Positions 3,313 through 35,546 of a stretch of DNA of 37,585 bases are shown here, piece by piece; the first letter of the stretch is position 1, and each line of letters starts with the position of its first letter. The position numbers were made by a program, and so were the translations under genes. A model generated the notes under the pieces. It saw only the letters and a program-made list of their open reading frames with translations, had not been told where the DNA came from and ran no database searches. The stretch is from a virus (lineage: Duplodnaviria > Heunggongvirae > Uroviricota > Caudoviricetes): the IMG/VR virus record IMGVR_UViG_2541047802_000015. The stretch is one strand, 5' to 3'.

Positions 3313-3359
3313 GACATGATCAGACATGAGATAAATGAAGGGGGATCCGTGAGATAAAT
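3313..3359. repeat. short direct repeats upstream of the klcA-like gene
   Basis: GACATGA at 3313 and 3323; TGAGATAAAT at 3327 and 3350; non-coding stretch between island genes and prophage genes. Confidence 0.4.
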
Positions 3360-3512
3360 AACGAATTGGAGTGGGTTAACATGGGTTCTGGTGAACAGAA
3401 CTGAAATTCTTTTCCGCTATACGATAGATAAGTCGGGCATTGAAATCATCCTTCCTGGCAACTTAGAATCGAGTTTGCTGAAACATGACCCGCAACAAAA
3501 AGGATGATTCCA

Positions 3513-4310: not shown

Positions 4311-4424
4311 ATTTTCTCCCTGCATCCTGAATACTAAAGAGAGAGCATAAAAAAAGCACGGTAAGGGGTCTACCGTGCTTTTATACAATAAGGAGATTTT
4401 TGAAAGGACTTTAACAAGCAGGAA

Positions 4425-4823
4425 TTATCTGGATTTGTTAACGTCTTTCGTCTCCTCTGGCAGATCTTCATCAAACAACCTGCCCTGCATCCGATCCAGT
4501 TCTTCTTTTCTGACCCGCTTAACCACGCTGTAGACCCACTGAAGCGAAACACCAAACTTGCGGGCCAGTTCGTGGTGGTTGCGTCCGTTAAACTCCCTGA
4601 AGATTTCCCGGTCGCGCTGACTGACCTTCCATACCATGCCCATCGGGAAATAAACGTTTTGCCCGCCCCAGACCTGCATCATTCGGTTCGCGACGGCCTG
4701 ACCAATCTGGTCGGCAATTGCGGGCTCAATATCAATAATCTCGCGAACGGTCTCAGAGGTATGCTGTGCCAGCTCCACCAGGAGTTCCGGCCCTTTACTT
4801 CGAAACTGATTCAGGTCGCTCAT
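4425..4823 (-). CDS. Mor/C-family transcriptional activator (candidate late-gene activator)
   Basis: 132 aa; C-terminal HTH region with DREIFREFNGRNHHELARKFGVSLQWVYSVV resembling the Mu Mor/C family. Confidence 0.65.
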   Translation of the reverse strand: MSDLNQFRSKGPELLVELAQHTSETVREIIDIEPAIADQIGQAVANRMMQVWGGQNVYFPMGMVWKVSQRDREIFREFNGRNHHELARKFGVSLQWVYSVVKRVRKEELDRMQGRLFDEDLPEETKDVNKSR

Positions 4824-9452: not shown

Positions 9453-11222
9453 TCAGTTGCCGTTAACAATGCTGATAACGCTGCTGCGGGCCGGCGTGGT
9501 CAGCGTGGCCATGACTTCATCCAGTGCGGCTTCCGGTACGCCGTCCGGGTACTGTGCTGTTAACTGGCGGTAATGTTCCGGCGTCCAGGTCAGGCCGTCG
9601 GCGCTGAACTTATCGCGCAGGGCTTTCGCGGCCTCCACATGAGTCATGGGACGCTGTTCAGTGCGCGGTCCGCGTACGTCAGAGGCCTGACCACGCTTCG
9701 GTATACAGGCCGGAAGTGTGGCGTCATCAATATGTTTATACGGGTCAAGCCGCCCGCCGAACGGCAGCGCCTTCGCCTTGCGTGCGGCAGCTGCATCTGC
9801 GGCGTTGTCTGTACCGGTGACCAGCGCTTCGGTTTCTTTTGCCGCCATCTGCGCCGGGGTTTCCGGCAGGGCTTTGTAACTTTCGCCAAATACCGCCGCG
9901 CCTTCAGCAAAGCCAAACTCGTTCTTTCTGACCTCTTCGACCAGGAAGAACGTCTCGTGGCCGTCCTCACCGGTCAGAACCACCTGTGCCACATCGCTGC
10001 GCCACGGGTTACGGGTAATCATCAGTTTTTCACCGACCAGTACGCCCGGTACCGTTGATACGTCAAATTCAGTGCCCCGGAACGAGACACGAAGTTTTGG
10101 CGTGACTTTGCGGAGTTCTGGTGCCGCCACAGCCAGTTCACGACATACCTCAACGGAAGGCGCTTTTTTCAGCTGCTCAGCAGTAATCTTCAGCCAGATA
10201 TCCGTGCGGGTTTTACCGTGGCGGCTGTGAACAGCCGTGGCGTTAAAGTGGCTGCGCCATTTCGCGGCCAGCGCGTTGAGTTCTTCCAGACTGTGAACCG
10301 GCCGGAACTTCAGACCCGGCTCCAGCTTGCGTTCGATAATGTCACGCGCCTTTTCCACCTGTCCGGTGGCGCGGGCGTTATGCGGCTTGTGCGCTATCAG
10401 GTCGATGCCCAGTGAGCGGCACATGTTTTTCGTCATACCCGCGGTGTTTGCCGAGCCGGGGTCGAGATAGAGTATTTTTGGCACGCCGTGCAGCACGTCT
10501 GCGCCGCCACGCTCCTGCATGGCGTTGATAAGCACAGAACACAGGTTCTCACCGGATTCCGCACCCGTCACATACTCAACGTAAATCCAGCCGCTGGCAT
10601 GGTCGGTAATCTCGTAACTCCACACGCGGTCACTGGCGATACGGGCAAGGTTAGCGGGCTTGTTTTTGTAGAATTTCGCGCTGTCCATCACCTGCAGCCC
10701 TTTATGTCCATTGCTCAGGTAGTAAAGCGTGCAGAGTGAGGCGTCAATCTGCCAGACATGATTGGGGTGCAGACTGGCCACTTCGGTATGCGGTGCAGGG
10801 GCATCCAGTTGTTCCGGGTGCAGGCCATAGTTACGCAGGGCACGACTGATGGCATCTTCGGACAACGGGAAAAACTCACCGGTGGTTTCATCTGTTCTGC
10901 CTGCGGAGATAAAGCCGTTAGCCCGCAGGGTTTCCACTGCATCCGCGATGGAATAGAGACGCTTACCGTTCTTGCGGGTGGCCTCACGTAGTGTGGCAGA
11001 TATCAGCGCGGCTTCGTCGCGGGTCAGGGTGCTGCGTCCGGCATCGGCGCGTTTTTTGCGTTTATCAGTCACAGAGACCTCCTTCAGCCTGCGCAGCAGA
11101 GTGGCGCGGGACATGCCAAGTTCAGCACAGGCAGCGTCGTATATTGCACCGCGTTTACCATGCCCCGCATTACGTGCCGCGCGGGCTGTTTCAACAAGTT
11201 TTTCAGTCAGTGCCGGGGTCAT
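9453..11222 (-). CDS. Mu-type DDE transposase (A protein, integrase catalytic core)
   Basis: 589 aa; N-terminal HTH; candidate DDE residues in VWQIDAS, LYLDPGSANT and ATGQVEKARD. Confidence 0.85.
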   Translation of the reverse strand: MTPALTEKLVETARAARNAGHGKRGAIYDAACAELGMSRATLLRRLKEVSVTDKRKKRADAGRSTLTRDEAALISATLREATRKNGKRLYSIADAVETLRANGFISAGRTDETTGEFFPLSEDAISRALRNYGLHPEQLDAPAPHTEVASLHPNHVWQIDASLCTLYYLSNGHKGLQVMDSAKFYKNKPANLARIASDRVWSYEITDHASGWIYVEYVTGAESGENLCSVLINAMQERGGADVLHGVPKILYLDPGSANTAGMTKNMCRSLGIDLIAHKPHNARATGQVEKARDIIERKLEPGLKFRPVHSLEELNALAAKWRSHFNATAVHSRHGKTRTDIWLKITAEQLKKAPSVEVCRELAVAAPELRKVTPKLRVSFRGTEFDVSTVPGVLVGEKLMITRNPWRSDVAQVVLTGEDGHETFFLVEEVRKNEFGFAEGAAVFGESYKALPETPAQMAAKETEALVTGTDNAADAAAARKAKALPFGGRLDPYKHIDDATLPACIPKRGQASDVRGPRTEQRPMTHVEAAKALRDKFSADGLTWTPEHYRQLTAQYPDGVPEAALDEVMATLTTPARSSVISIVNGN

Positions 11223-12482: not shown

Positions 12483-12797
12483 TTACAAACGACTACCTGA
12501 AATGACACGTTGGTTGATTTCGTTAATGCGATCCTGTGCACGTGCCATCTCGTTACTGTGGGCCATGGCGATCTGCAGCAACTGGATGCCCGGTGCGAAA
12601 CGCCCGTTTTCCAGTTTCAGGGCCAGTCCTTCTTCAATGAGGGTGTTGAGTGCCCGGTTGATGTTTGCCGGTGACTCGTGCAGTGCTGCCGCCAGTTCAC
12701 CATTGGAAATACCGTTCAGGGCATGACCGCGCAGCGCTTTGAGTACCCGGAGGATGCGACTGCCGGAGCTTGAAACATTCGTCTTACTCATCTGCAT
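12483..12797 (-). CDS. winged-helix DNA-binding protein
   Basis: 104 aa; ILRVLKALRGHALNGISNGELAAAL...INRALNTLIEEGL resembles a MarR/IclR-type wHTH. Confidence 0.45.
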   Translation of the reverse strand: MQMSKTNVSSSGSRILRVLKALRGHALNGISNGELAAALHESPANINRALNTLIEEGLALKLENGRFAPGIQLLQIAMAHSNEMARAQDRINEINQRVISGSRL

Positions 12798-12843
12798 ACC
12801 TCTTTTGCGATATGTGATAACCTTTTACAAAGAATCAAAATAT

Positions 12844-13557: not shown

Positions 13558-13591
13558 CCGGAAAGCACTGTACTTTCCGGTTATGGCTTTT
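13558..13591 (+). terminator. putative intrinsic terminator between convergent repressor and dam genes
   Basis: CCGGAAAG/CTTTCCGG 8-bp stem with 7-nt loop, followed by TTATGGCTTTT on the plus strand. Confidence 0.45.
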
Positions 13592-14354
13592 AGAAATTGC
13601 AGATCACCAGCTCACGGCGTGGAGTTGATTTGCCTGCCAGACTGTAGTTGATGTTCACTGTCTGTATGTTCAGTCCAGTGAACACCTCGCGCATCTGCGG
13701 GATGTCGTTCACCGAAATTATCATCTTTCCTCTGATGCACCGGGCCAGCTCTGCCAGCCGCGAGTAGTTCCCTTCAGGAAAATCCACACCATAGCCTTCT
13801 GTACCCAGATACGGCGGGTCACAGTAGAACAGCGTGTGCGGACGGTCATAGCGCTCAATGCACTGTTGCCAGTCCATGTGTTCTATCACCGTTCTGGAAA
13901 GCCGCAGGTGTGCCGCTGACAGTTCTTCCTCGATACGCAGCAGGTTGAAGCGTGGCGGGGATGTGGTGGAGGTGCCGAAGCTGTGCTCTGCCACCTTGCC
14001 GCCAAACGCCTGCTTCTGGAGGTAGTAGAACCGTGCTGCACGCTGGATATCCGTCAGTGTTTCTGTCGGGGTGATCTGCAGCCATTTGTAGATCTGCCGG
14101 CTGACCAGCGCCCATTTGAACTGGCGGACAAATTCTTCCAGATGATGTTTTACCACCCGATACAGATTTACCAGTTCACCATTGATATCGTTAATGACTT
14201 CGAGCTTACCAGGTGTCTTAAGAAAATAGAGCGCTGCTGCGCCGCAGAACGGCTCCACGTAACATTCATGCGCCGGAAACAGCGGCAGGATGTGTTTTGC
14301 CAGGCGACGTTTGCCACCAATCCATGGAACGATGGGTAATGTCTGCATTTTCAT
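13590..14354 (-). CDS. dam: DNA adenine methyltransferase (Dam family, N6-adenine, D12 class)
   Basis: 254 aa; catalytic DPPY motif and N-terminal FxGxK-type AdoMet-binding region; no restriction endonuclease partner in the window. Confidence 0.85.
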   Translation of the reverse strand: MKMQTLPIVPWIGGKRRLAKHILPLFPAHECYVEPFCGAAALYFLKTPGKLEVINDINGELVNLYRVVKHHLEEFVRQFKWALVSRQIYKWLQITPTETLTDIQRAARFYYLQKQAFGGKVAEHSFGTSTTSPPRFNLLRIEEELSAAHLRLSRTVIEHMDWQQCIERYDRPHTLFYCDPPYLGTEGYGVDFPEGNYSRLAELARCIRGKMIISVNDIPQMREVFTGLNIQTVNINYSLAGKSTPRRELVICNF

Positions 14355-14459
14355 AATCTGTAAGCCTTTTACAATTATTAAAAATATGGCAGGCTAGTCT
14401 GGTCTCGCGAGACTGACTGAACCCCGGTCGGCTCACAGCGCATTCCTGTGGGACGATGG

Positions 14460-15747: not shown

Positions 15748-15792
15748 TCTTAACGCGCTTTAAAATCCTCCGCGCCACGCTTTTGCCATGCT
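15748..15792 (+). promoter_or_regulatory. putative late promoter upstream of the lysis cassette
   Basis: Conserved block TCTTAACGCGCTTTAAAATC, 19-nt spacer, then CATGCT; same architecture recurs at 23148, 29058 and 35148. Confidence 0.5.
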
Positions 15793-15819
15793 GTCTCCAC
15801 ACAACAAGGAGACATTTTC

Positions 15820-17873: not shown

Positions 17874-18184
17874 TGGTCGATATTACCCGGGTACGCCGTG
17901 AATCCCTGCGCTGGAGTCTGCTGGTTGCCCTTAACAAAACCCGCCCTTACACCGCCAGCGAGACGCTGCTGCTGGAAGTGTCCCGCGCCATCTACCCGGA
18001 CACCACGCAACTGGAACTGCGCCGTGAGCTTGATTACCTGGCAGATCGCAAAATGGTGGAACTGGAGAGGAGACCGTCCGGTGACTGGTTTGCCGATCTG
18101 AGTCGCCTTGGTGTGGATATTGTGGAATACACCGTGGAATGCGGCCCCGGTATTGCCCGCCCGGAAAAATACTGGAGTGAGTGA
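17873..18184 (+). CDS. hypothetical protein (Mu gp26-position)
   Basis: 103-aa ORF coupled to neighbours. Confidence 0.4.
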   Translation: MVDITRVRRESLRWSLLVALNKTRPYTASETLLLEVSRAIYPDTTQLELRRELDYLADRKMVELERRPSGDWFADLSRLGVDIVEYTVECGPGIARPEKYWSE

Positions 18185-18729: not shown

Positions 18730-20249
18730 CGGAGCTGCCGCCGCACATTCCTGACACCGCGAGTTATGAGACACCGCCGGTTCTGTTGCCTTACCAGCAG
18801 CGCTGGGTGGCAGATACCTCTCCGCTTAAGGTGATGGAAAAGAGCCGTCGTACCGGTATTACATGGGCTGAGGCATCCGATAACGTACTGACCGCAGCCT
18901 CTTCTGCGCCTGCAGGCGGGATGAATGTGTATTACATCGCCTATAACCAGGATATGACCGTCGAATACATTCAGGCGTGTGCGATGTGGGCGCGGGCATT
19001 CAACTATGCGGCCAGTGAAATTGAAGAAGGATTCTGGGAGGAGGACGACGACGATAAACACATCAGGACTTACACCATCAAATTTCCTGACTCCGGCTTT
19101 CGCATTGTCGCGCTCTCCAGCCGCCCGTCTAACCTGCGTGGCCGTCAGGGTATTATTGTTATCGACGAAGCGGCGTTCCATGAGCAACTGGACGAACTGC
19201 TGAAAGCGGCGCTGGCGATGCTTATCTGGGGGGGCAAGGTACGCGTTATCTCCACCCATGACGGTGACGACAATCCATTCAGTACGCTTATCGGAGATAT
19301 CCGTGCCGGACGTCAGGGAGGCAGCGTACATCGCATCACTTTCCGGGAAGCCGTATCTGAGGGGCTGTTCCAGCGCGTTTGTCTGCGCACCGGGAAGGAA
19401 TGGTCGGAGGCATCCGAGCTGGCCTGGATGGCGTCGGTGTACAAATTCTACGGTGCCGGCGCATCCGAAGAGCTTGACTGTATTCCGGCCAACGGTGGCG
19501 GTGCCTGGCTGTCCCGTGCCCTGATAGAGTCCCGAATGTCCGCTGATACGCCAGTATTGCGTCTGACCTGCAAGGAAGGTTATGAACTGCTGTCTGATGA
19601 GGTTCGCTTCCACGAGACACAGGACTGGCTTGATGAGCATCTGAAACCCTTGCTGGAGGCACTCCCCACTGATGCCCGCTCTTTCCTGGGGCGCGACTTT
19701 GGTCGCAGCGGTGATTTGTCGGTGGACTATCCCCTGCTGCAGGAGAAGAACCTGGTACGACGCGTGCCATTCGTACTGGAGCTGCGTAACGTGCCGTTCA
19801 GACAGCAGGAGCAAATCACCTGGTATCTGATGGATGGCCTGCCCGGTCTGCTGGGTGCAGCATTTGATGCCCGTGGTAATGGTGCCTATCTGGCTGAATA
19901 CGCCATGCAGCGCTACGGCTCCAGCCGGGTTCAGCAGGTGATGCCAACCGAAGGCTGGTACCGGGAGCATATGCCTCCGGTCAAAGCTGCACTGGAAGAC
20001 GGTAACCTGCTGGACTTACCAAAAGATGAAGACACACTGGATGACCTGCGGGCCGTTCAGGTGGTGAACGGTGTCCCCCGCGTGCCGGAACAACGCTCAA
20101 AAGCAAAGGCTGATGGTGGTAAACGCCACGGGGATTCAGCCATCGCACTGGCGCTGGCGTATTTCGCCAGCCGTGAAATTAACAAAGGGCCGGTGAAGGC
20201 AAGCTCACGACGTCGTCGTCAGGCGGCCCGTATGCTGGAGGGATTCTGA
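18726..20249 (+). CDS. terminase large subunit (Mu gp28-like)
   Basis: 507 aa; ATPase-like N-terminus and nuclease-like C-terminus with acidic residues (IVIDEAAFH); position before the portal. Confidence 0.8.
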   Translation: MTELPPHIPDTASYETPPVLLPYQQRWVADTSPLKVMEKSRRTGITWAEASDNVLTAASSAPAGGMNVYYIAYNQDMTVEYIQACAMWARAFNYAASEIEEGFWEEDDDDKHIRTYTIKFPDSGFRIVALSSRPSNLRGRQGIIVIDEAAFHEQLDELLKAALAMLIWGGKVRVISTHDGDDNPFSTLIGDIRAGRQGGSVHRITFREAVSEGLFQRVCLRTGKEWSEASELAWMASVYKFYGAGASEELDCIPANGGGAWLSRALIESRMSADTPVLRLTCKEGYELLSDEVRFHETQDWLDEHLKPLLEALPTDARSFLGRDFGRSGDLSVDYPLLQEKNLVRRVPFVLELRNVPFRQQEQITWYLMDGLPGLLGAAFDARGNGAYLAEYAMQRYGSSRVQQVMPTEGWYREHMPPVKAALEDGNLLDLPKDEDTLDDLRAVQVVNGVPRVPEQRSKAKADGGKRHGDSAIALALAYFASREINKGPVKASSRRRRQAARMLEGF

Positions 20250-21745: not shown

Positions 21746-22547
21746 ACTGGCGTACTGCATGACGCTTCCCCCGAAGCGGGCAGTCAGCTACCTGAAGTCC
21801 AAAGGGTATCAGATTACCTGGGACCAGGAAGAAATGTGGCAGGACGCCCATGCCCGCGCCTTTACCGTCGCTAAAGTGACCCGCCTGGATATTCTGGAAG
21901 ATATTCGCGGGACACTGCAGCAGGCTGTTGATGAAGGAAAAACCGATCGCTGGTTCCGGCAGGAGCTGGAGCCGGCGCTGAAGCGCAGGGGATGGTGGGG
22001 ACCGCGTGACACGACTGACCCGGTAACGGGTGAGCCGGTCACCATTCAGCAGGGCAGTCCGTGGCGGCTCGATACCATCTTTCGCACCAATATGTCCGTA
22101 CTCTACAGCGCCGGTCGTTGGGCGGAGCAGATGGAAAACGTCGACGACAGGCCGTACTGGATGTATACCGGCATCAACGACAGCCATACCCGCAGGAGCC
22201 ATCTGGCGCTGCATGGTCTGGTGCTGCGCTGGGATGACCCGTTCTGGCAGGCATTTTACCCGCCGAACGGCTGGCGCTGCCGCTGTAGTGTGATTGCCCT
22301 GAGTGCGGCGGATGTACGTGCCCGTGGCCTGAAGGTTATCAGCTCCGGCTCTGCCATGGGCCAGGAACTGAAACTGGTCTCAGAGAAAACCGGCGAAATG
22401 TGGAACGTGGCCACCTTTAATACCGGCACCACGAAGGTGACCACCGACGTCGGCTGGTCTTATGCACCGGGGGCAGCATACCGTCCCGACCTGGCCCGCT
22501 ATCAGGGTACGCTTCAGCCACTGGCACAACAGGAACTGAGAGGATAA
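21726..22547 (+). CDS. head morphogenesis protein (Mu F/gp30-like)
   Basis: Resembles the Mu F family; start taken at the internal Met at 21726 (track ORF starts 21699) to limit overlap with the portal. Confidence 0.7.
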   Translation: MSVTTAELAYCMTLPPKRAVSYLKSKGYQITWDQEEMWQDAHARAFTVAKVTRLDILEDIRGTLQQAVDEGKTDRWFRQELEPALKRRGWWGPRDTTDPVTGEPVTIQQGSPWRLDTIFRTNMSVLYSAGRWAEQMENVDDRPYWMYTGINDSHTRRSHLALHGLVLRWDDPFWQAFYPPNGWRCRCSVIALSAADVRARGLKVISSGSAMGQELKLVSEKTGEMWNVATFNTGTTKVTTDVGWSYAPGAAYRPDLARYQGTLQPLAQQELRG

Positions 22548-22549
22548 CA

Positions 22550-23008
22550 ATGGCTTCCGATAACCTGGTCAGTGTCACCATTAATGATAAATCCCTGCGC
22601 CGGAGCCTCCGTGCGCTGGATCTGGCTGCCACAGACATGGAGCCTGCGATGCGCAAAATCGCCGGAACCCTGCTGGCGGAAACACAGTTTAACTTTCTTG
22701 ATGAGGGGCGTCCGGGGTGGATGCCCTCGCTGGCAGCGGAAGAACGTAACGGACAGACACTGCAGGATACCGGGCGTCTGATGGGGTCAGTATCAACCGA
22801 GCATGACGACCGGCAGGCTGTTGTGGGGACCAACGTTGTTTACGGTGCCATTCACCAGTTCGGGGGTAAAACGGGGCGTAATGAGTCTGTTGAACTTCCG
22901 GCCCGCCCGTTCCTGCCGGTGACGGAGGATGGAGAGCTACAGCCTGAAGTGGTAGTCCCCATCCTCGATACCATTGTCCGCCATCTTGAAGCAGCGGCCC
23001 GTCGCTGA
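22550..23008 (+). CDS. virion morphogenesis protein (Mu G-like)
   Basis: 152 aa; position after the F-like gene; resembles the Mu G family. Confidence 0.65.
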   Translation: MASDNLVSVTINDKSLRRSLRALDLAATDMEPAMRKIAGTLLAETQFNFLDEGRPGWMPSLAAEERNGQTLQDTGRLMGSVSTEHDDRQAVVGTNVVYGAIHQFGGKTGRNESVELPARPFLPVTEDGELQPEVVVPILDTIVRHLEAAARR

Positions 23009-23054
23009 GTTTTCTCTCTTCAGGCGGGTGATTTATCATTGCCAGCGAATGAGG

Positions 23055-23097
23055 GGCTGTATTACCTTTATAAAGGCTTTACAGCCTCTGTTTTATA
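23055..23097 (+). terminator. large imperfect palindrome with T-tract after the G-like gene
   Basis: GGCTGTA...TACAGCC arms enclose the perfect palindrome CCTTTATAAAGG (23065-23076), followed by TCTGTTTTATA. Confidence 0.4.
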
Positions 23098-23147
23098 ACT
23101 GCCTCCGGTTCACCACATTGCTTTCCCTGTCCTTCTCCCCTGATGTT

Positions 23148-23192
23148 TTCTAAAGCAGATTAAAATCGCCGGGCCCGCATTTCTCACAAACT
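23148..23192 (+). promoter_or_regulatory. putative late promoter upstream of the I-like gene
   Basis: Block TTCTAAAGCAGATTAAAATC, 19-nt spacer, then CAAACT followed by GTCTCC; matches the element upstream of the lysis cassette. Confidence 0.45.
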
Positions 23193-23222
23193 GTCTCCGA
23201 CAACATAACGCGGGACAGCAAA

Positions 23223-24338
23223 ATGTCAGCCATTCACATTTTTAAAGCCGGTACTCATACCGATATGCACGGCAAAAAACTGCCGTTCACGCCAGACGAT
23301 CTTGCCGCCTGCGTGAAAGCCTATGACCCGTCCGTCCATGAAGCACCACTCGTGATTGGTCATCCCAGAACGGAAGACCCGGCGTGGGGCTGGGTGAAAG
23401 CCCTGTCGCTCAGCGGCGTCGATCTGATGGCAGAGCCTGCCCAGCTGGACCCGCAGTTTGCTGAGATGGTCACCGACGGACGATTCAAAAAAGTGTCTGC
23501 CTCTTTCTACCTCCCGGATTCACCGTCCAATCCGAAGCCCGGCGTGCTCTACCTGCGCCATGTGGGCTTTCTTGGGGCACAGCCACCTTCCGTCAAAGGA
23601 CTGAAACAGGTGTCCTTCAGTGAGCAGGAAGAAGGTGTGGTGGAGTTCGCCGACTGGCAGGCCATCACGAATGCCTCACTGTGGGGAAAGCTGCGCGATT
23701 TTCTGATCGCCCGCTTCAGTCTGGACGAAGCAGAAAAAGTTCTGCCGGAATGGCAGCTCAACAGTCTGCGCGAAGAGGCGTACCGCGACACACCGTCGCA
23801 GGATGCAGCAGGTGCGCAATTCAGTGAGACAGGCCAGGTGCCGTCTTCCGCAAGTAACGAGGAATCATCGATGACAAAAGAAGAGATTGAAGCCCTTCAG
23901 GCGGAGAACCGCCGCCTGAAGCAGCAGGCTGCTGATCGCGATGCGCGTGATGCACAGGTCAGACAGGAGCAACTGCATAAGGACAATGTGGCCTTTGCAG
24001 AAAAACTGGTCGCAGAGGGCCGTCTGGCTCCCCGCGCCTCCTCCGTGGTGGTTGCCCTGCTGGATTCCGTCGCCGGTGGCGACAAGCCGGTGGAGTTTGC
24101 TGAGGGGGAAAGCCGCACACCGCTGGCCACCGCCTTCCGTTCGCTGCTCTCCGACGGGGAGCCGGTGATGAACTTCGCCGAACAGGCCACGAAGGAGCGT
24201 GTCGGCGACACGGTGAAAGTGGATGTGACGGAGTTTGCAGAAGCCGACCCTGACCGTCTGGCACTGCACCAGAAGGCTGTGGAACTGTCGAAAAAAGAAG
24301 GCATCAGCTATGAGGCTGCTGTCACACGCTGCCTGTAA
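23223..24338 (+). CDS. head protease/scaffold protein (Mu I-like)
   Basis: 371 aa; N-terminal region resembling the Mu I family and an acidic/coiled-coil C-terminal scaffold-like region. Confidence 0.75.
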   Translation: MSAIHIFKAGTHTDMHGKKLPFTPDDLAACVKAYDPSVHEAPLVIGHPRTEDPAWGWVKALSLSGVDLMAEPAQLDPQFAEMVTDGRFKKVSASFYLPDSPSNPKPGVLYLRHVGFLGAQPPSVKGLKQVSFSEQEEGVVEFADWQAITNASLWGKLRDFLIARFSLDEAEKVLPEWQLNSLREEAYRDTPSQDAAGAQFSETGQVPSSASNEESSMTKEEIEALQAENRRLKQQAADRDARDAQVRQEQLHKDNVAFAEKLVAEGRLAPRASSVVVALLDSVAGGDKPVEFAEGESRTPLATAFRSLLSDGEPVMNFAEQATKERVGDTVKVDVTEFAEADPDRLALHQKAVELSKKEGISYEAAVTRCL

Positions 24339-29038: not shown

Positions 29039-29060
29039 AGGGGCTCCGGCCCCTTCTTCT
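29039..29060 (+). terminator. short GC hairpin with T-rich tail inside the tail operon
   Basis: 6-bp stem (AGGGGC pairs with GCCCCT) with TCCG loop, then TCTTCTT; overlaps the start of a putative late-promoter block. Confidence 0.3.
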
Positions 29061-29102
29061 TAATCTCCTTTAATATCCGTCACGCGCTTCTCCCGACATA
29101 CT
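29058..29102 (+). promoter_or_regulatory. putative internal late promoter upstream of the tail chaperone gene
   Basis: Block TCTTAATCTCCTTTAATATC, 19-nt spacer, then CATACT followed by GCCC; about 27 nt leader to ATG 29130 with AGGAG RBS. Confidence 0.45.
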
Positions 29103-29129
29103 GCCCTGAACTTACACAGGAGCACAATC

Positions 29130-29622: not shown

Positions 29623-32313
29623 ATGTCGGGACAGTTTTCAGTCGGCGTTGTTATCGGCGGGATGATTGGCAGCACATTCCGTTCTGCAATGAGCGGTACC
29701 CGCCGTGCGCTTGATTCCCTGAGCGATACCTCACGCCGCCTGCAGGAACGTCAGAACGCTTTAACCCGTGCAACAGAACGTTATGGTCAACTGGGCTCTT
29801 CCCGGATGCAGCATCTCAACAGCGAGCTGCTGCGGGTAAGCCGCACCATGGAGCAAATTGAGCGCCAGCAGCGCCGTCTGTCAGCGGCATCAGCCACCAG
29901 TGATGCGCTGAAAGCTAACCGCATGGCGCTGTATGGTCAGGGGATTGAAGCGTATGGCATGGCACAGACTGTTTATCATACGGTTTCCCCTGCCGTTCAG
30001 CAGTCCATGTCTTTTCAGGACAAAATGATTGATATGTCGATCACCGCAAAATATGACAATAAAACGCGGGATGCACTTGCCGGACAGATAAAAGGCTGGG
30101 CGCAAAAATACAATCAGTATCAGGATGAACTGCAGGAGGCGGTGGGTTCGCTCATCAGCGACAATATTGATAACTTGTCAGATATCGGTTTTCTGATGCC
30201 GGATATTGCCCGCGCGGCAACGGCAACACGCACGTCATCTCAGGACTGGGCAAAAGTGGCCGCAGTCTGGCAAAACTCCCTGAAAGGTGCGGCCAGAGAT
30301 TTTAGTGCCGTCCAGAATATTATGGCTTATGCCGGTGACCAGGGGTCATTTGAAATCCCGGATCAGGTCAAGTGGATGCAGTCCCTGGCCCCAATGATGG
30401 CGGGTATTGCCAGTGGAAAAGAGGCTGTTGCTGAAATCGGGGCCAGTCTCCAGATAGCAAAAATCGGTGCGGGCTCCACCGACGAAGCAGCCAATAATTT
30501 TAAAAACTTTCTTACCAAAATTTTTGCCCGCGATACTCAGAAACAGTTTGCTGATCTGGGTATTGATTTGCAGGGTTCTGTTGCGAGTTATAAGGCTGCG
30601 GGGATCTCTCCGATTGAAGGGATGTTGAGTGTTATAGAACGTTACCTCAATGCCAAAAGCCCCGAAGCGCTGGCCGGCTTCAAATCCGCCATGAAAATAA
30701 AGAATGATACGGCAAGAGATGAGGCACTTCAGGCTCTGGCGAAAAACTTTGGTCTGGGCGATATGTTCGCGGATATGCAGGTCATGGCATTTATCCGCCC
30801 GATGCTGGCCAACATGGACAGATATCGCGAGATCCGTGCCGGTGCTCTCAGGGCTGCGGATAACGATTTGCTTGCCAGTGCTTACGATCAGCGGCTGAAA
30901 TCTCCCCTTGAAGCCACTAAAGCGCTTATGGTCAGCAGTCGCGATCTGGCTATTACGCTGGGCGATCAGCTCGCCCCCTCTTTTATTTCTCTGACTCAGG
31001 AGCTGATCCCACTCATTCAGGGGGCAAAACACTGGGTGGCGACTCACCCGCAATTTGTCAGTGGGGCTTTTAAGCTCATCAGTGCGCTCCTTGCGATTAA
31101 GATAGCGACTGTTGGTCTCAAACTGGGGCTGAATCTCCTTATTTCCCCCTTTGTGAACGTCTGGAAAACTGCTGTTTTACTCCGGACCAACTGGCATCGA
31201 CTGACTACCGCACTAGGAGAAGGTGGCAAATTACGCTGGCTTGTCACTGGATTTAGCCGACTGACCAGCGGAGGACTGAAACTCAGCAAAGTTCTGGCGG
31301 GCAGCCTCGTTCGCGGTTTTATGAGCGCTGCACGTGCCGTTCTCTGGATTGGGCGAGCGCTGATGATGAATCCCATCGGTCTCGTTATCACCGCTGTCGC
31401 GGCAGCAGCTTACCTTATCTACCGCAACTGGGGGACAGTCAGTGGCTGGTTTAAACAGCGCTGGGCTGACATTCAGGAAGCCTTTAACGGCGGTATCGCG
31501 GGAACTGGTAAGCTGCTGATTAACTGGTCGCCGGCAGGGCTGCTCTATAAAGCCTTTGCGGCTGCGCTGAAATATTTCGGCGTTGCTCTGCCGGCAAAGT
31601 TCACCGACTTCGGTGGCCATCTTGTCGACGGTCTGATTAACGGTATCAAAAACAAATGGGGGTCGCTCAAATCCAGTGTAACCGGAATGGGTGACAGCAT
31701 CAGTGGCTGGTTCAGTGAAAAGCTGGGTATTCATTCGCCGAGCCGCGTGTTTATGGGCTTTGGTGACAATATCGCGCAGGGGGCCGCCATTGGCCTGCAG
31801 CGGAGCACTCCGATTGCAGCTCTGGCCGGGCAGCGAATGGCCAGTGAACTGCTCCCCAGAATGCCCGTGAGCATTCAGGGGCCAGAAATACGGGATAACA
31901 CTTCAGGTGTTCGCTTCAGTATGCCGTTGCCCGATATCAACGGGTTTATGTCGTCTGCTAAAAATGCGATCGGATCCGTAATCAATAGTTTGTCTTCCAT
32001 GCCCGCTATTCCGATCTCCACCCGGGCATCGACTTTACCAGGTCAACGTCTGGCAAATGAGATGACACCGGATGTTCCCCGTATCCCCTCGCCTGAAATC
32101 CTGGCTGCCGGATATTCAGGCCGTGGTGCAGCTGCAACCGGCGGTGGAACGTCTGGTGGTATCCAGGTCAGCTTTAATCCTCAGTTTTTCCTCAATGGCA
32201 GGGAAACCACAGCGCCTGCAGGACTGACTGGTGCCCTGAATATGAGTCTGCATGAGCTGGAAAAAATGCTGGAGCGTCTGCTGGCTCAGAAACAACGTAA
32301 GGAGTACCGCTGA
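29623..32313 (+). CDS. tail tape measure protein
   Basis: 896 aa; Ala/Gly-rich with helical N-terminal half and hydrophobic central segments; canonical position after the chaperone. Confidence 0.85.
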   Translation: MSGQFSVGVVIGGMIGSTFRSAMSGTRRALDSLSDTSRRLQERQNALTRATERYGQLGSSRMQHLNSELLRVSRTMEQIERQQRRLSAASATSDALKANRMALYGQGIEAYGMAQTVYHTVSPAVQQSMSFQDKMIDMSITAKYDNKTRDALAGQIKGWAQKYNQYQDELQEAVGSLISDNIDNLSDIGFLMPDIARAATATRTSSQDWAKVAAVWQNSLKGAARDFSAVQNIMAYAGDQGSFEIPDQVKWMQSLAPMMAGIASGKEAVAEIGASLQIAKIGAGSTDEAANNFKNFLTKIFARDTQKQFADLGIDLQGSVASYKAAGISPIEGMLSVIERYLNAKSPEALAGFKSAMKIKNDTARDEALQALAKNFGLGDMFADMQVMAFIRPMLANMDRYREIRAGALRAADNDLLASAYDQRLKSPLEATKALMVSSRDLAITLGDQLAPSFISLTQELIPLIQGAKHWVATHPQFVSGAFKLISALLAIKIATVGLKLGLNLLISPFVNVWKTAVLLRTNWHRLTTALGEGGKLRWLVTGFSRLTSGGLKLSKVLAGSLVRGFMSAARAVLWIGRALMMNPIGLVITAVAAAAYLIYRNWGTVSGWFKQRWADIQEAFNGGIAGTGKLLINWSPAGLLYKAFAAALKYFGVALPAKFTDFGGHLVDGLINGIKNKWGSLKSSVTGMGDSISGWFSEKLGIHSPSRVFMGFGDNIAQGAAIGLQRSTPIAALAGQRMASELLPRMPVSIQGPEIRDNTSGVRFSMPLPDINGFMSSAKNAIGSVINSLSSMPAIPISTRASTLPGQRLANEMTPDVPRIPSPEILAAGYSGRGAAATGGGTSGGIQVSFNPQFFLNGRETTAPAGLTGALNMSLHELEKMLERLLAQKQRKEYR

Positions 32314-35147: not shown

Positions 35148-35192
35148 TCTTAAACGCCTTTAATATCAGCGTTCCCGCACGGGGGCAATACT
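35148..35192 (+). promoter_or_regulatory. putative internal late promoter or RNA element upstream of the gpW-like gene
   Basis: Block TCTTAAACGCCTTTAATATC, 19-nt spacer, then AATACT followed by GCCC; only 6 nt before ATG 35199 and inside hairpin 35181-35198. Confidence 0.4.
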
Positions 35193-35198
35193 GCCCCC

Positions 35199-35546
35199 AT
35201 GAAAACGACCTCAGTATTCTGGCAACCAGCCCTGCAGGCTCCCGGCGAAATTGTCCGGGGGCTGGATGATATCCGGCAGGCGATTCAAATTATCCTGCGG
35301 ACTCCCCGCGGCAGCGACCCGCATCGCCCGGAGTTCGGCAGCAATCTGCATCTTTATATCGACTGGCCTGTAGACCGGGCCATTCCGCATGTGGTGCGCG
35401 AATCCGTCGATGCCATCCGGCGCTGGGAGCCCCGCTGCCAGCTTATGTCAGTTAAACCCGCCGTCGACGGCGAACATCTTACGCTCCGGGTGAGCTGGAA
35501 AGGCTCAGACGGACAGACCCGGACTCAGGAGCTGCTATGGCGCTGA
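35199..35546 (+). CDS. baseplate wedge protein (gpW / gp25-like)
   Basis: 115 aa; size and position typical of GPW; start may be leaderless or misplaced. Confidence 0.6.
   Translation: MKTTSVFWQPALQAPGEIVRGLDDIRQAIQIILRTPRGSDPHRPEFGSNLHLYIDWPVDRAIPHVVRESVDAIRRWEPRCQLMSVKPAVDGEHLTLRVSWKGSDGQTRTQELLWR

Follow-up and report, generated by a model that had tools for sequence, protein, structure and literature searches.

How transcription passes from one block of late genes to the next, and whether it is interrupted and started anew in between, is the question raised by the gap between two head genes in the IMG/VR virus record IMGVR_UViG_2541047802_000015. The whole stretch of 37,585 nucleotides is referred to here as the window and, judged from its sequence, is a BcepMu-like transposable prophage of E. 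coli. The gap lies between the end of a G-like open reading frame (ORF) at 23008 and the start of an I-like ORF at 23223. Its extent of 214 bp (23009-23222) agrees with the first-pass annotation, whose features were all found at the positions given and which had proposed that a palindromic terminator and a late promoter follow each other here in a terminate-and-restart arrangement like that of P_I in phage Mu. With a probability of roughly 0.65, this G-I gap is the boundary of two late transcription units, where a terminator would be followed by a late promoter dependent on an activator of the Mor family.

The promoter half of this proposal held up well, based on four copies of the element, a Mor gene and sequence conservation. 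The pattern TAA-N6-TTAAWATC-N20-A-NN-CTG occurs four times in the window (15751, 23151, 29061 and 35151), always on the plus strand, with no occurrence expected from shuffled sequences. This 43-nt pattern was derived from the window copies themselves, which emerged on direct reading of the late intergenic regions and were missed by a generic repeat search of the window. A matrix built from the four sites of phage BcepMu alone placed these four positions ahead of all others on the plus strand of the window, with scores of 22.2, 21.4, 18.7 and 14.9, and the next hit scored 9.8. The late-promoter element described at 23148-23192 is one of these in-register copies and was among those recovered by the BcepMu-only matrix. 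All copies share the same layout, in which TAA-N6-TTAAWATC is followed by 19 variable bases, a weak -10 hexamer (CATGCT, CAAACT, CATACT or AATACT) and a G. Each is located directly upstream of one block of genes, namely lysis, head protease/capsid, tail assembly and baseplate, with copy 1 (15751-15793) preceding the holin and lysis genes and copy 4 (35151-35193) preceding the baseplate genes.

Copy 2 is the one located in the G-I gap. Its Mor box, TTCTAAAGCAGATTAAAATC, spans 23148-23167 on the plus strand, corresponding to about -51 to -34 and thus overlapping the -35 region, and aligns with the box of the Mu promoter Pm (GTAAAGCCGGTTAATC) and with the BcepMu box (GTAAAGCCGATTAAAA). The -10 hexamer CAAACT (23187-23192, plus strand) occupies the same register as CATGCT, CATACT and AATACT in the other three copies and as TATCCT in Mu Pm. 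No -35 element is found in the 19-nt spacer between box and hexamer (23168-23186), as the sequence at the 17-bp position, AATCGC, matches TTGACA at none of six bases, and a sigma-70 scan of the G-I gap returned no plus-strand promoter. When the G-I gaps of 15 diverged enterobacterial relatives are aligned, the box (TTCTAAAGCAGATTAAAA) and the -10 region (CA.ACTGTC) stand out as conserved on either side of a freely varying spacer. From the distance to the -10 hexamer and the published numbering of Pm, transcription is predicted to start at 23199-23202 on the plus strand, so that the leader up to the ATG at 23223 would measure about 22-24 nt.

A Mor/C-family gene on the minus strand (4425-4823; PF08765, E 1e-43) encodes the protein presumed to activate all four promoters. 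Its identity to BcepMu gp01 is 56%, and the helix-turn-helix (HTH) regions of the two are nearly the same; to Mu Mor and Mu C it is 31% and 35%, respectively. In Mu, the Mor dyad of Pm is located at -51 to -36 (PMC4287176), which would correspond to GTAAAGCCGGTTAATC and, by alignment, to CTAAAGCAGATTAAAA of the window. Activators of the Mor/C family bind as dimer or tetramer just upstream of the -35 region and contact sigma region 4 and the C-terminal domain of the alpha subunit (PMC4287176; bioRxiv 10.1101/2025.05.02.651988), a mechanism that may by analogy be carried over to the phage in the window. Taken as sequence evidence, the identification of 23148-23192 as a Mor-type activator-dependent promoter with a start near 23200 is strongly supported.

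Several side observations concern the surroundings of the promoter copies. At copies 1 and 2 (15791-15815 and 23191-23218), a conserved CTGTCTCC after the -10 hexamer can base-pair with the region around the ribosome-binding site of the block's first gene, with TGTCTCC pairing with GGAGACA at copy 1 and CTGTCTCCG with CGCGGGACAG at copy 2, and substitutions in relatives preserve this pairing through G.U or G-C pairs. The resulting hairpin would hide the ribosome-binding site. With its left arm upstream of the predicted start, it could form in read-through transcripts only, and it may be an insulation device. At copy 4 (35187-35201), the ATG of the baseplate gene stands exactly 7 nt past the -10 hexamer, so that a leaderless mRNA is predicted. 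The same layout is found at the equivalent BcepMu site (30775-30823) and nearly so at BcepMu PI (18813-18866), for which reason the annotated start of BcepMu gene 32 (18850) looks too far upstream. On the minus strand, past the stop codon of the Mor gene (4340-4425), a Mor-box-like TAAAGTCCTTTCAAAAATC, a TATAAAA and a strong terminator (AAAGCACGGTA...TACCGTGCTTTTTTT) follow each other and could represent a fifth Mor-responsive site or a very short left-end transcript. A consensus scan also found a sigma-70-like CTGACA-16-TATGTT on the minus strand at 23202-23229, antisense over the start codon of I. It is probably a chance match, since promoter-like hits in this region number 4 compared to 9.8 expected.

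The terminator half of the proposal rests on a palindrome upstream of the promoter. As described in the first-pass annotation, a 32-bp imperfect palindrome at 23055-23086 (GGCTGTATTACCTTTATAAAGGCTTTACAGCC) encloses a perfect one. It consists of 7-bp outer arms and a 3x3 mismatch flanking the 12-bp perfect palindrome, and can be extended to 38 bp (23052-23089) by A-T, G-C and G.T pairs. A repeat finder reported the latter as 19-nt arms with 79% complementarity. The corresponding plus-strand RNA is predicted to form a two-tier hairpin with a 10-bp outer stem containing 6 G-C pairs, a 3x3 internal loop, a 4-bp inner stem and a UAUA loop. The predicted folding energy of the 56-nt segment is -20.0 kcal/mol compared to -9.7 +/- 2.7 kcal/mol for shuffled sequences (z -3.85), and none of the 200 shuffles was equally stable. 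The tail reported to follow the palindrome, TCTGTTTTATA, was found directly after it at 23087-23097. Within it begins the U-rich tract GTTTTATAA (23090-23098, plus strand), which adjoins the 3' end of the stem and reads GUUUUAUAA with five U in the first eight bases. On the opposite side of the hairpin there is no T run, and therefore the signal would be unidirectional.

A similar junction is found elsewhere in the window. A canonical, GC-rich terminator hairpin (AGGGGC-TCCG-GCCCCT, 29039-29054, plus strand) abuts promoter copy 3 (29061-29103), and its T-rich tail runs into the Mor box of this copy, making 29039-29103 a second candidate terminate-and-restart junction. At the equivalent junction, BcepMu has GGCCCGC-TTCG-GCGGGCC, so the structure is kept and the sequence changed. 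Within the G-I region, a consensus scan also flagged a small hairpin, CAGCGGCCCGTCGCTG followed by AGTTTTCTCTCTT (22992-23022, plus strand), which overlaps the stop codon of G and is a weak candidate for a first terminator. It shows no covariation in the alignment of the 15 enterobacterial gaps, and the coding region constrains its sequence. A search of 22500-23700 on both strands with the Rfam covariance models gave no hit with an E-value of at most 1.

The comparison with relatives supports the terminator in part. In BcepMu and phiE255, the outer arms have another sequence and the pairing is kept (CCCGTAAAG / CTTTACGGG), forming together with G.U pairs a 13-bp helix followed by a UUUGGUU tail. 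Because of several such G.U pairs, the plus-strand RNA is more stable than the minus-strand RNA, with -16.0 compared to -12.5 kcal/mol in BcepMu and -11.9 compared to -5.4 kcal/mol in phiE255. The outer stem of the relative labelled L140 pairs perfectly over 11 bp, and UUUU comes directly after it. The U-rich tail is present in the E. coli type, L140 and BcepMu, and absent in group A and in Pseudomonas phage Komp_PAO1_1.

Several points weigh against the boundary as proposed. In group A, which is one close lineage, the U tract is replaced by CGCTTCGC while the hairpin is intact. In groups B and C, the Ralstonia phage and siphovirus B3, the core palindrome is kept and the outer stem is absent or weak: in group B the 3' arm of a different hairpin stands where the left arm was, and little or no stem is left in the other three. 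Across 13 lineages, the comparison of plus- and minus-strand RNA stability is mixed. In the window itself, termination may be only partial, because the apex is AU-rich and the stem contains a 3x3 internal loop. On the promoter side, we infer both the start site and the dependence on Mor by homology. The hairpin of group A and the G.U pairs favoring plus-strand RNA in the Burkholderia phages would also fit an RNA-level 3'-end protector or processing site, which stabilizes the upstream mRNA after cleavage or Rho-dependent termination. However, the window, L140 and BcepMu do have a U tract, and the lineages without a stem would be left unexplained, so that this explanation is very unlikely. Overall, the comparative support for the terminator is mixed and termination is plausible. 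Termination is likely in the window's own lineage and does not appear to be constant across the wider family. As an interpretation, terminate-and-restart is sound and, given what is annotated in the Mu gap, unremarkable.

With this reservation, the proposed boundary would work as follows. Transcripts from the first late promoter (15751) would cross the lysis, terminase, portal, F and G genes. Beyond the stop codon of G, the hairpin at 23052-23089 and the U-rich tail would cause a fraction of the polymerases to terminate intrinsically, without Rho. About 60 bp downstream, the single Mor-family activator would bind the imperfect dyad of the box at 23148-23167, which overlaps the missing -35 region, and recruit the host sigma-70 RNA polymerase to the weak -10 hexamer CAAACT (23187-23192). 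Transcription of the head protease/scaffold and capsid genes would then restart near 23200.

The conservation of the inner palindrome raises the question whether termination is its only role. The 12-bp perfect palindrome CCTTTATAAAGG (23065-23076) is the sole exact copy in the window and is invariant in 15/15 diverged enterobacterial gaps, in which the flanks have diverged beyond alignment. The overlapping 16-mer TTTATAAAGGCTTTAC (23067-23082) is shared without change by the BcepMu G-I gap, although that phage has an I protein with only 50% identity and a GC content of 63%. A scan of IMG/VR for exact matches found it in the G-I gap of many BcepMu-like contigs, with I-protein identities of 49-100%, in addition to chance hits in AT-rich phages. 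The shorter TTTATAAA is also found in the gaps of phiE255, the Ralstonia phage, Komp_PAO1_1 (AGCTTTATAAAGCT) and B3 (GTTTATAAAC). Relatives whose I protein is as little as about 36% identical still have the hairpin apex, TTTATAAA(GGCTTTAC), in this gap. In the whole 63%-GC genomes of BcepMu, B3 and Ralstonia phage YO107_2, TTTATAAA occurs once, with about 0.05 occurrences expected, and TTATAA too is found only at the G-I site of these three. Relative to record length, TTTATAAA is located at 0.51 in BcepMu, 0.514 in B3, 0.486 in the Ralstonia phage and 0.522 in the E. coli prophage. Since the core is retained where stem and U tract are lost, selection would act on the AT-rich palindrome rather than on the stem or the U tract. 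The palindrome is conserved well beyond the needs of a terminator, and may have an additional DNA-level role at the genome center. It is not described in the phage records examined or in the literature searched, and a literature search with the 12-mer and the 16-mer returned no occurrence.

One candidate for such a role is a binding site for a phage regulator, either Mor or another HTH protein, which could tune PI from a position about 130 bp upstream or stop read-through. The first-pass annotation had already considered the inner palindrome as a protein-binding site, and this suggestion gains weight because it is the perfect 12-bp palindrome and not the stem that is invariant across lineages. 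Furthermore, in BcepMu GTAAAGCC is limited to the PI box and the palindrome, the Mor site of Mu Pm is itself a terminator-like dyad, and the fuller, ancestral-looking form GTAAAGCC-TTTATAAA-GGCTTTAC contains, on either strand, the Mor box's left half. However, the palindrome is not Mor-box-like, and its use as a Mor box was rejected: with the Mor-box matrices, the best score around 23052-23089 is negative and ranks about 200-400 of 75,126 positions. B3 keeps TTTATAAA, yet inspection by eye of its G-I gap and of the region upstream of the holin gene showed no TAA-N6-TTAA box. The window also holds no second copy of the palindrome, for example in an operator region. A site for the integration host factor (WATCAANNNNTTR) was rejected too, as TATAAAGGCTTTA matches 8/9 bases but lacks the key C, and the matching flanks are not conserved in B3 and Komp_PAO1_1. 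A regulator-binding site is therefore unlikely.

Two further candidate roles were rejected. If the palindrome were a sigma-70 -10 element (TATAAA), a -35 element would be expected, but inspection revealed no conserved one on either strand in any lineage. With the end repeat bound by the transposase (GAGATAAAT), it shares only a low-complexity TTTAT. The heptamer GATAAAT is not enriched, with 6 copies compared to about 4.6 expected.

A different explanation places the palindrome chiefly at the DNA level, as a central element and functional counterpart to the strong gyrase site known from Mu (SGS), with termination being secondary or limited to some lineages. Here, the flexible TTTATAAA core, possibly cruciform or bent, would mark the site of gyrase action or the tip of a supercoiled loop, so that the prophage ends are brought together for replicative transposition. 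The Mu SGS must be central to work (PMC3820752, PMC10052514), and its cut site lies in the same G-I gap, as does that of FluMu according to the literature (PMC2628397). The single occurrence of TTTATAAA near the midpoint of the BcepMu, B3 and Ralstonia YO107_2 genomes and the survival of the core after loss of stem and U tract point in the same direction. Gyrase has also been observed on a short, AT-rich palindrome, with a bend resembling that of TBP (PMC13284261). Around the site, an A/T periodicity of about 10-11 bp reaches the 93rd-99th percentile for the window and likewise for B3 and the Ralstonia phage, and the 92nd-99th percentile in the SGS right arm of Mu, an acceptable positive control, but is not seen in BcepMu, and the measure is confounded by AT-rich patches.

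Other evidence speaks against a gyrase site. There is no alignable similarity to the Mu SGS, and in published tests only the site of a close Mu relative could replace it (PMC10052514). The central position is not independent evidence, because the conserved gene order places the gap there. Unrelated palindromes in the gaps of other lineages (CGCGTTATAACGCG, and GGCACAWTGTGCC in phage Ab30) would be a better fit for lineage-specific proteins than for a host enzyme that is conserved. A strong/weak-base score derived from the published 133-bp Topo-seq consensus ranked the Mu SGS only about 27th (z about 3.2) and was discarded as evidence. The gyrase-type explanation is thus possible but doubtful. 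In its wider form it is equally tentative: TTTATAAA(GGCTTTAC) could be a central cis element of BcepMu-like and B3-like transposable phages, serving as SGS counterpart or as a loop-tip pin that aids end pairing, and could have been recruited as terminator loop in some lineages.

The transcription boundary, which remains the preferred reading, lies within a prophage whose identity is well documented. The protein families in the window identify a Mu-like transposable phage, and Escherichia phage PhiKM, which is classified in Bcepmuvirus, is 96.8% identical to the region. The region is carried by 637/5,426 complete E. coli genomes. Besides the Mor activator (4425-4823), the minus strand encodes GemA, Gam, a DDE transposase (9453-11222) and an AAA+ protein. 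The plus strand encodes holin, SLT endolysin, terminase, Mu-type portal, Mu F, the G-like protein, the I-like protein and capsid. The G-like virion morphogenesis gene (22550-23008; PF05069, E 5e-23) is the last gene of the upstream late block and is annotated as Mup31/G in PhiKM. The I-like head maturation protease/scaffold gene (23223-24338) is the first of the downstream block, and tblastn matched its product to the head maturation protease/scaffold genes of BcepMu, B3 and RcapMu. Scanning the genome collection with the I protein yielded 7 loci, and the diversity of relatives used for comparison came mostly from IMG/VR and GenBank phages.

The ends of the prophage were located by comparison with a second copy in strain AR_0085. 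The left end is at window position 3317 (TGATCAGACATGAGATAAAT...), the prophage is 37,595 bp long, and the right end would lie about 3.3 kb past the window. Upstream of the left end, from window position 1 to about 3.3 kb, there is a host island with CbtA/CbeA, RadC and an antirestriction gene. The AR_0085 copy (NZ_CP029741, 549-38143) is about 92-99.7% identical by segment and is located inside a P2-like prophage, and such differing insertion sites are expected because the phage is transposable. The left end (3317-3370) begins with TGATCAGACATGAGATAAATGAAGG...GTGAGATAAATA and contains repeated GAGATAAAT motifs, which are presumably transposase-binding sites. The right end, read from the second copy, begins with TGATGCGCCGCGCGATAAATG, and the ends of BcepMu and B3 have related repeats. 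A 32-nt repeat with 75% identity (12812-12843 and 14356-14387) is found directly upstream of two minus-strand genes, an HTH gene (12483-12797) and a Dam-type methylase gene (13590-14354), where it spans both ribosome-binding regions on the minus strand (TTGTAAAAGG...).

Among the relatives, Klebsiella phage KP12 (OM835952) is collinear with the prophage and 82.6% identical from portal to capsid. Its record is filed under Vequintavirinae, and this taxonomy line looks wrong. A 41-aa ORF annotated within its G-I gap, KP12_270, is probably spurious. The corresponding small ORF of the window (22974-23153) was rejected as a coding region, as the region is highly variable and its indels are not frame-preserving.

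The finding is chiefly useful for annotating the transcription units of BcepMu-like prophages, in which the late operons probably all depend on one activator of the Mor type and its Pm-like boxes. The terminator-plus-promoter junction is a textbook feature of Mu and recurs here in another branch of the transposable phages, one common in E. coli. While the rest of the junction is of a type known from Mu, the deep conservation of the central palindrome is the new result. It provides a precise target of 8-16 bp for the question of central gyrase or topological sites beyond the closest relatives of Mu. Such a site was sought in phage KS10 without success (PMC2628397), and the one in Ab30 is a proposal (PMC5977238).

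Among the known systems close to the prophage in the window are the Burkholderia phage BcepMu and its kin (Bcepmuvirus). BcepMu and the window prophage share the same genome plan with inverted early genes, four promoter sites at the same four junctions, the identical 16-nt core in the G-I gap and activators that are 56% identical. They differ in the sequence of the outer stem, in host and in GC content, and the predicted PI transcript of BcepMu is nearly leaderless, unlike that of the window. No annotation or paper describing the junction elements of the BcepMu group was found in the literature searched.

In Ab30, a D3112-like Pseudomonas phage, the proposed gyrase site is likewise intergenic, palindromic and located right after the G-like gene at the genome midpoint, in a segment that is free of transposon insertions in vivo (PMC5977238). 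Its sequence, with two GGCACAWTGTGCC palindromes, is unrelated to that of the window, and in both phages the function is only proposed. The Ab30 palindromes (739-800 of the Ab30 stretch) are close to the published insertion-free segment, and Xanthomonadales-type contigs have the perfect palindrome CGCGTTATAACGCG in the G-I gap. Judged by these sequences, palindromes following G seem to be general in the wider group of transposable phages.

The comparison with P_I of Mu made in the first-pass annotation is apt for the region but not for the boxes, which resemble the Mor-dependent Pm rather than the C-dependent PI box. Mu Pm fits the 43-nt architecture TAA-N6-TTAA...A-NN-CTG with TAA-AGCCGG-TTAAT...ATCCTG, and its imperfect dyad GTAAAGCC|GGTTAATC matches CTAAAGCA|GATTAAAA of the window. 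Both have a weak -10 hexamer (NANNCT), no -35 element and an activator of PF08765. In Mu, Pm drives the middle operon including C, whereas the phage in the window uses a Pm-type promoter four times for late genes. In addition, the Pm dyad doubles as a terminator-like hairpin, whereas the hairpin of the window is separate and located about 60 bp upstream of the box. In Mu, C activates PI through a box of the CCATAACCCC type, as in C-dependent Mu late promoters, while the window box belongs to the Mor/Pm type, and the window yielded a single gene of the Mor/C family.

Outside the -10 region, there is no alignable nucleotide similarity between the Mu and window gaps. The Mu gap lacks TTTATAAA, and a gyrase site in the phage of the window is a candidate only. 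The arrangement of the two gaps is nevertheless the same. Both separate homologous G (PF05069) and I (head protease/scaffold) genes, are of comparable length (196 bp in Mu and 214 bp in the window) and lie near the genome midpoint (48.7% in Mu and 52.2% in the window prophage). In the Mu record, the gap holds the gyrase cut site (17879/17880), a predicted terminator (17908-17953) and the annotated late promoter PI. Zha, Zhao and Howe reportedly mapped the 3' end of the Mu lys transcript to this gap in 1994. The fold of the Mu terminator has the same two tiers, an outer stem of 9 bp and an inner one of 4 bp, with a predicted energy of -19.8 kcal/mol and the tail UUUUAUCUU. In both phages, a hairpin of about -20 kcal/mol is followed by UUUUAU and then, immediately upstream of I, by a promoter without a -35 element, which is activator-dependent in Mu and predicted to be so in the window.

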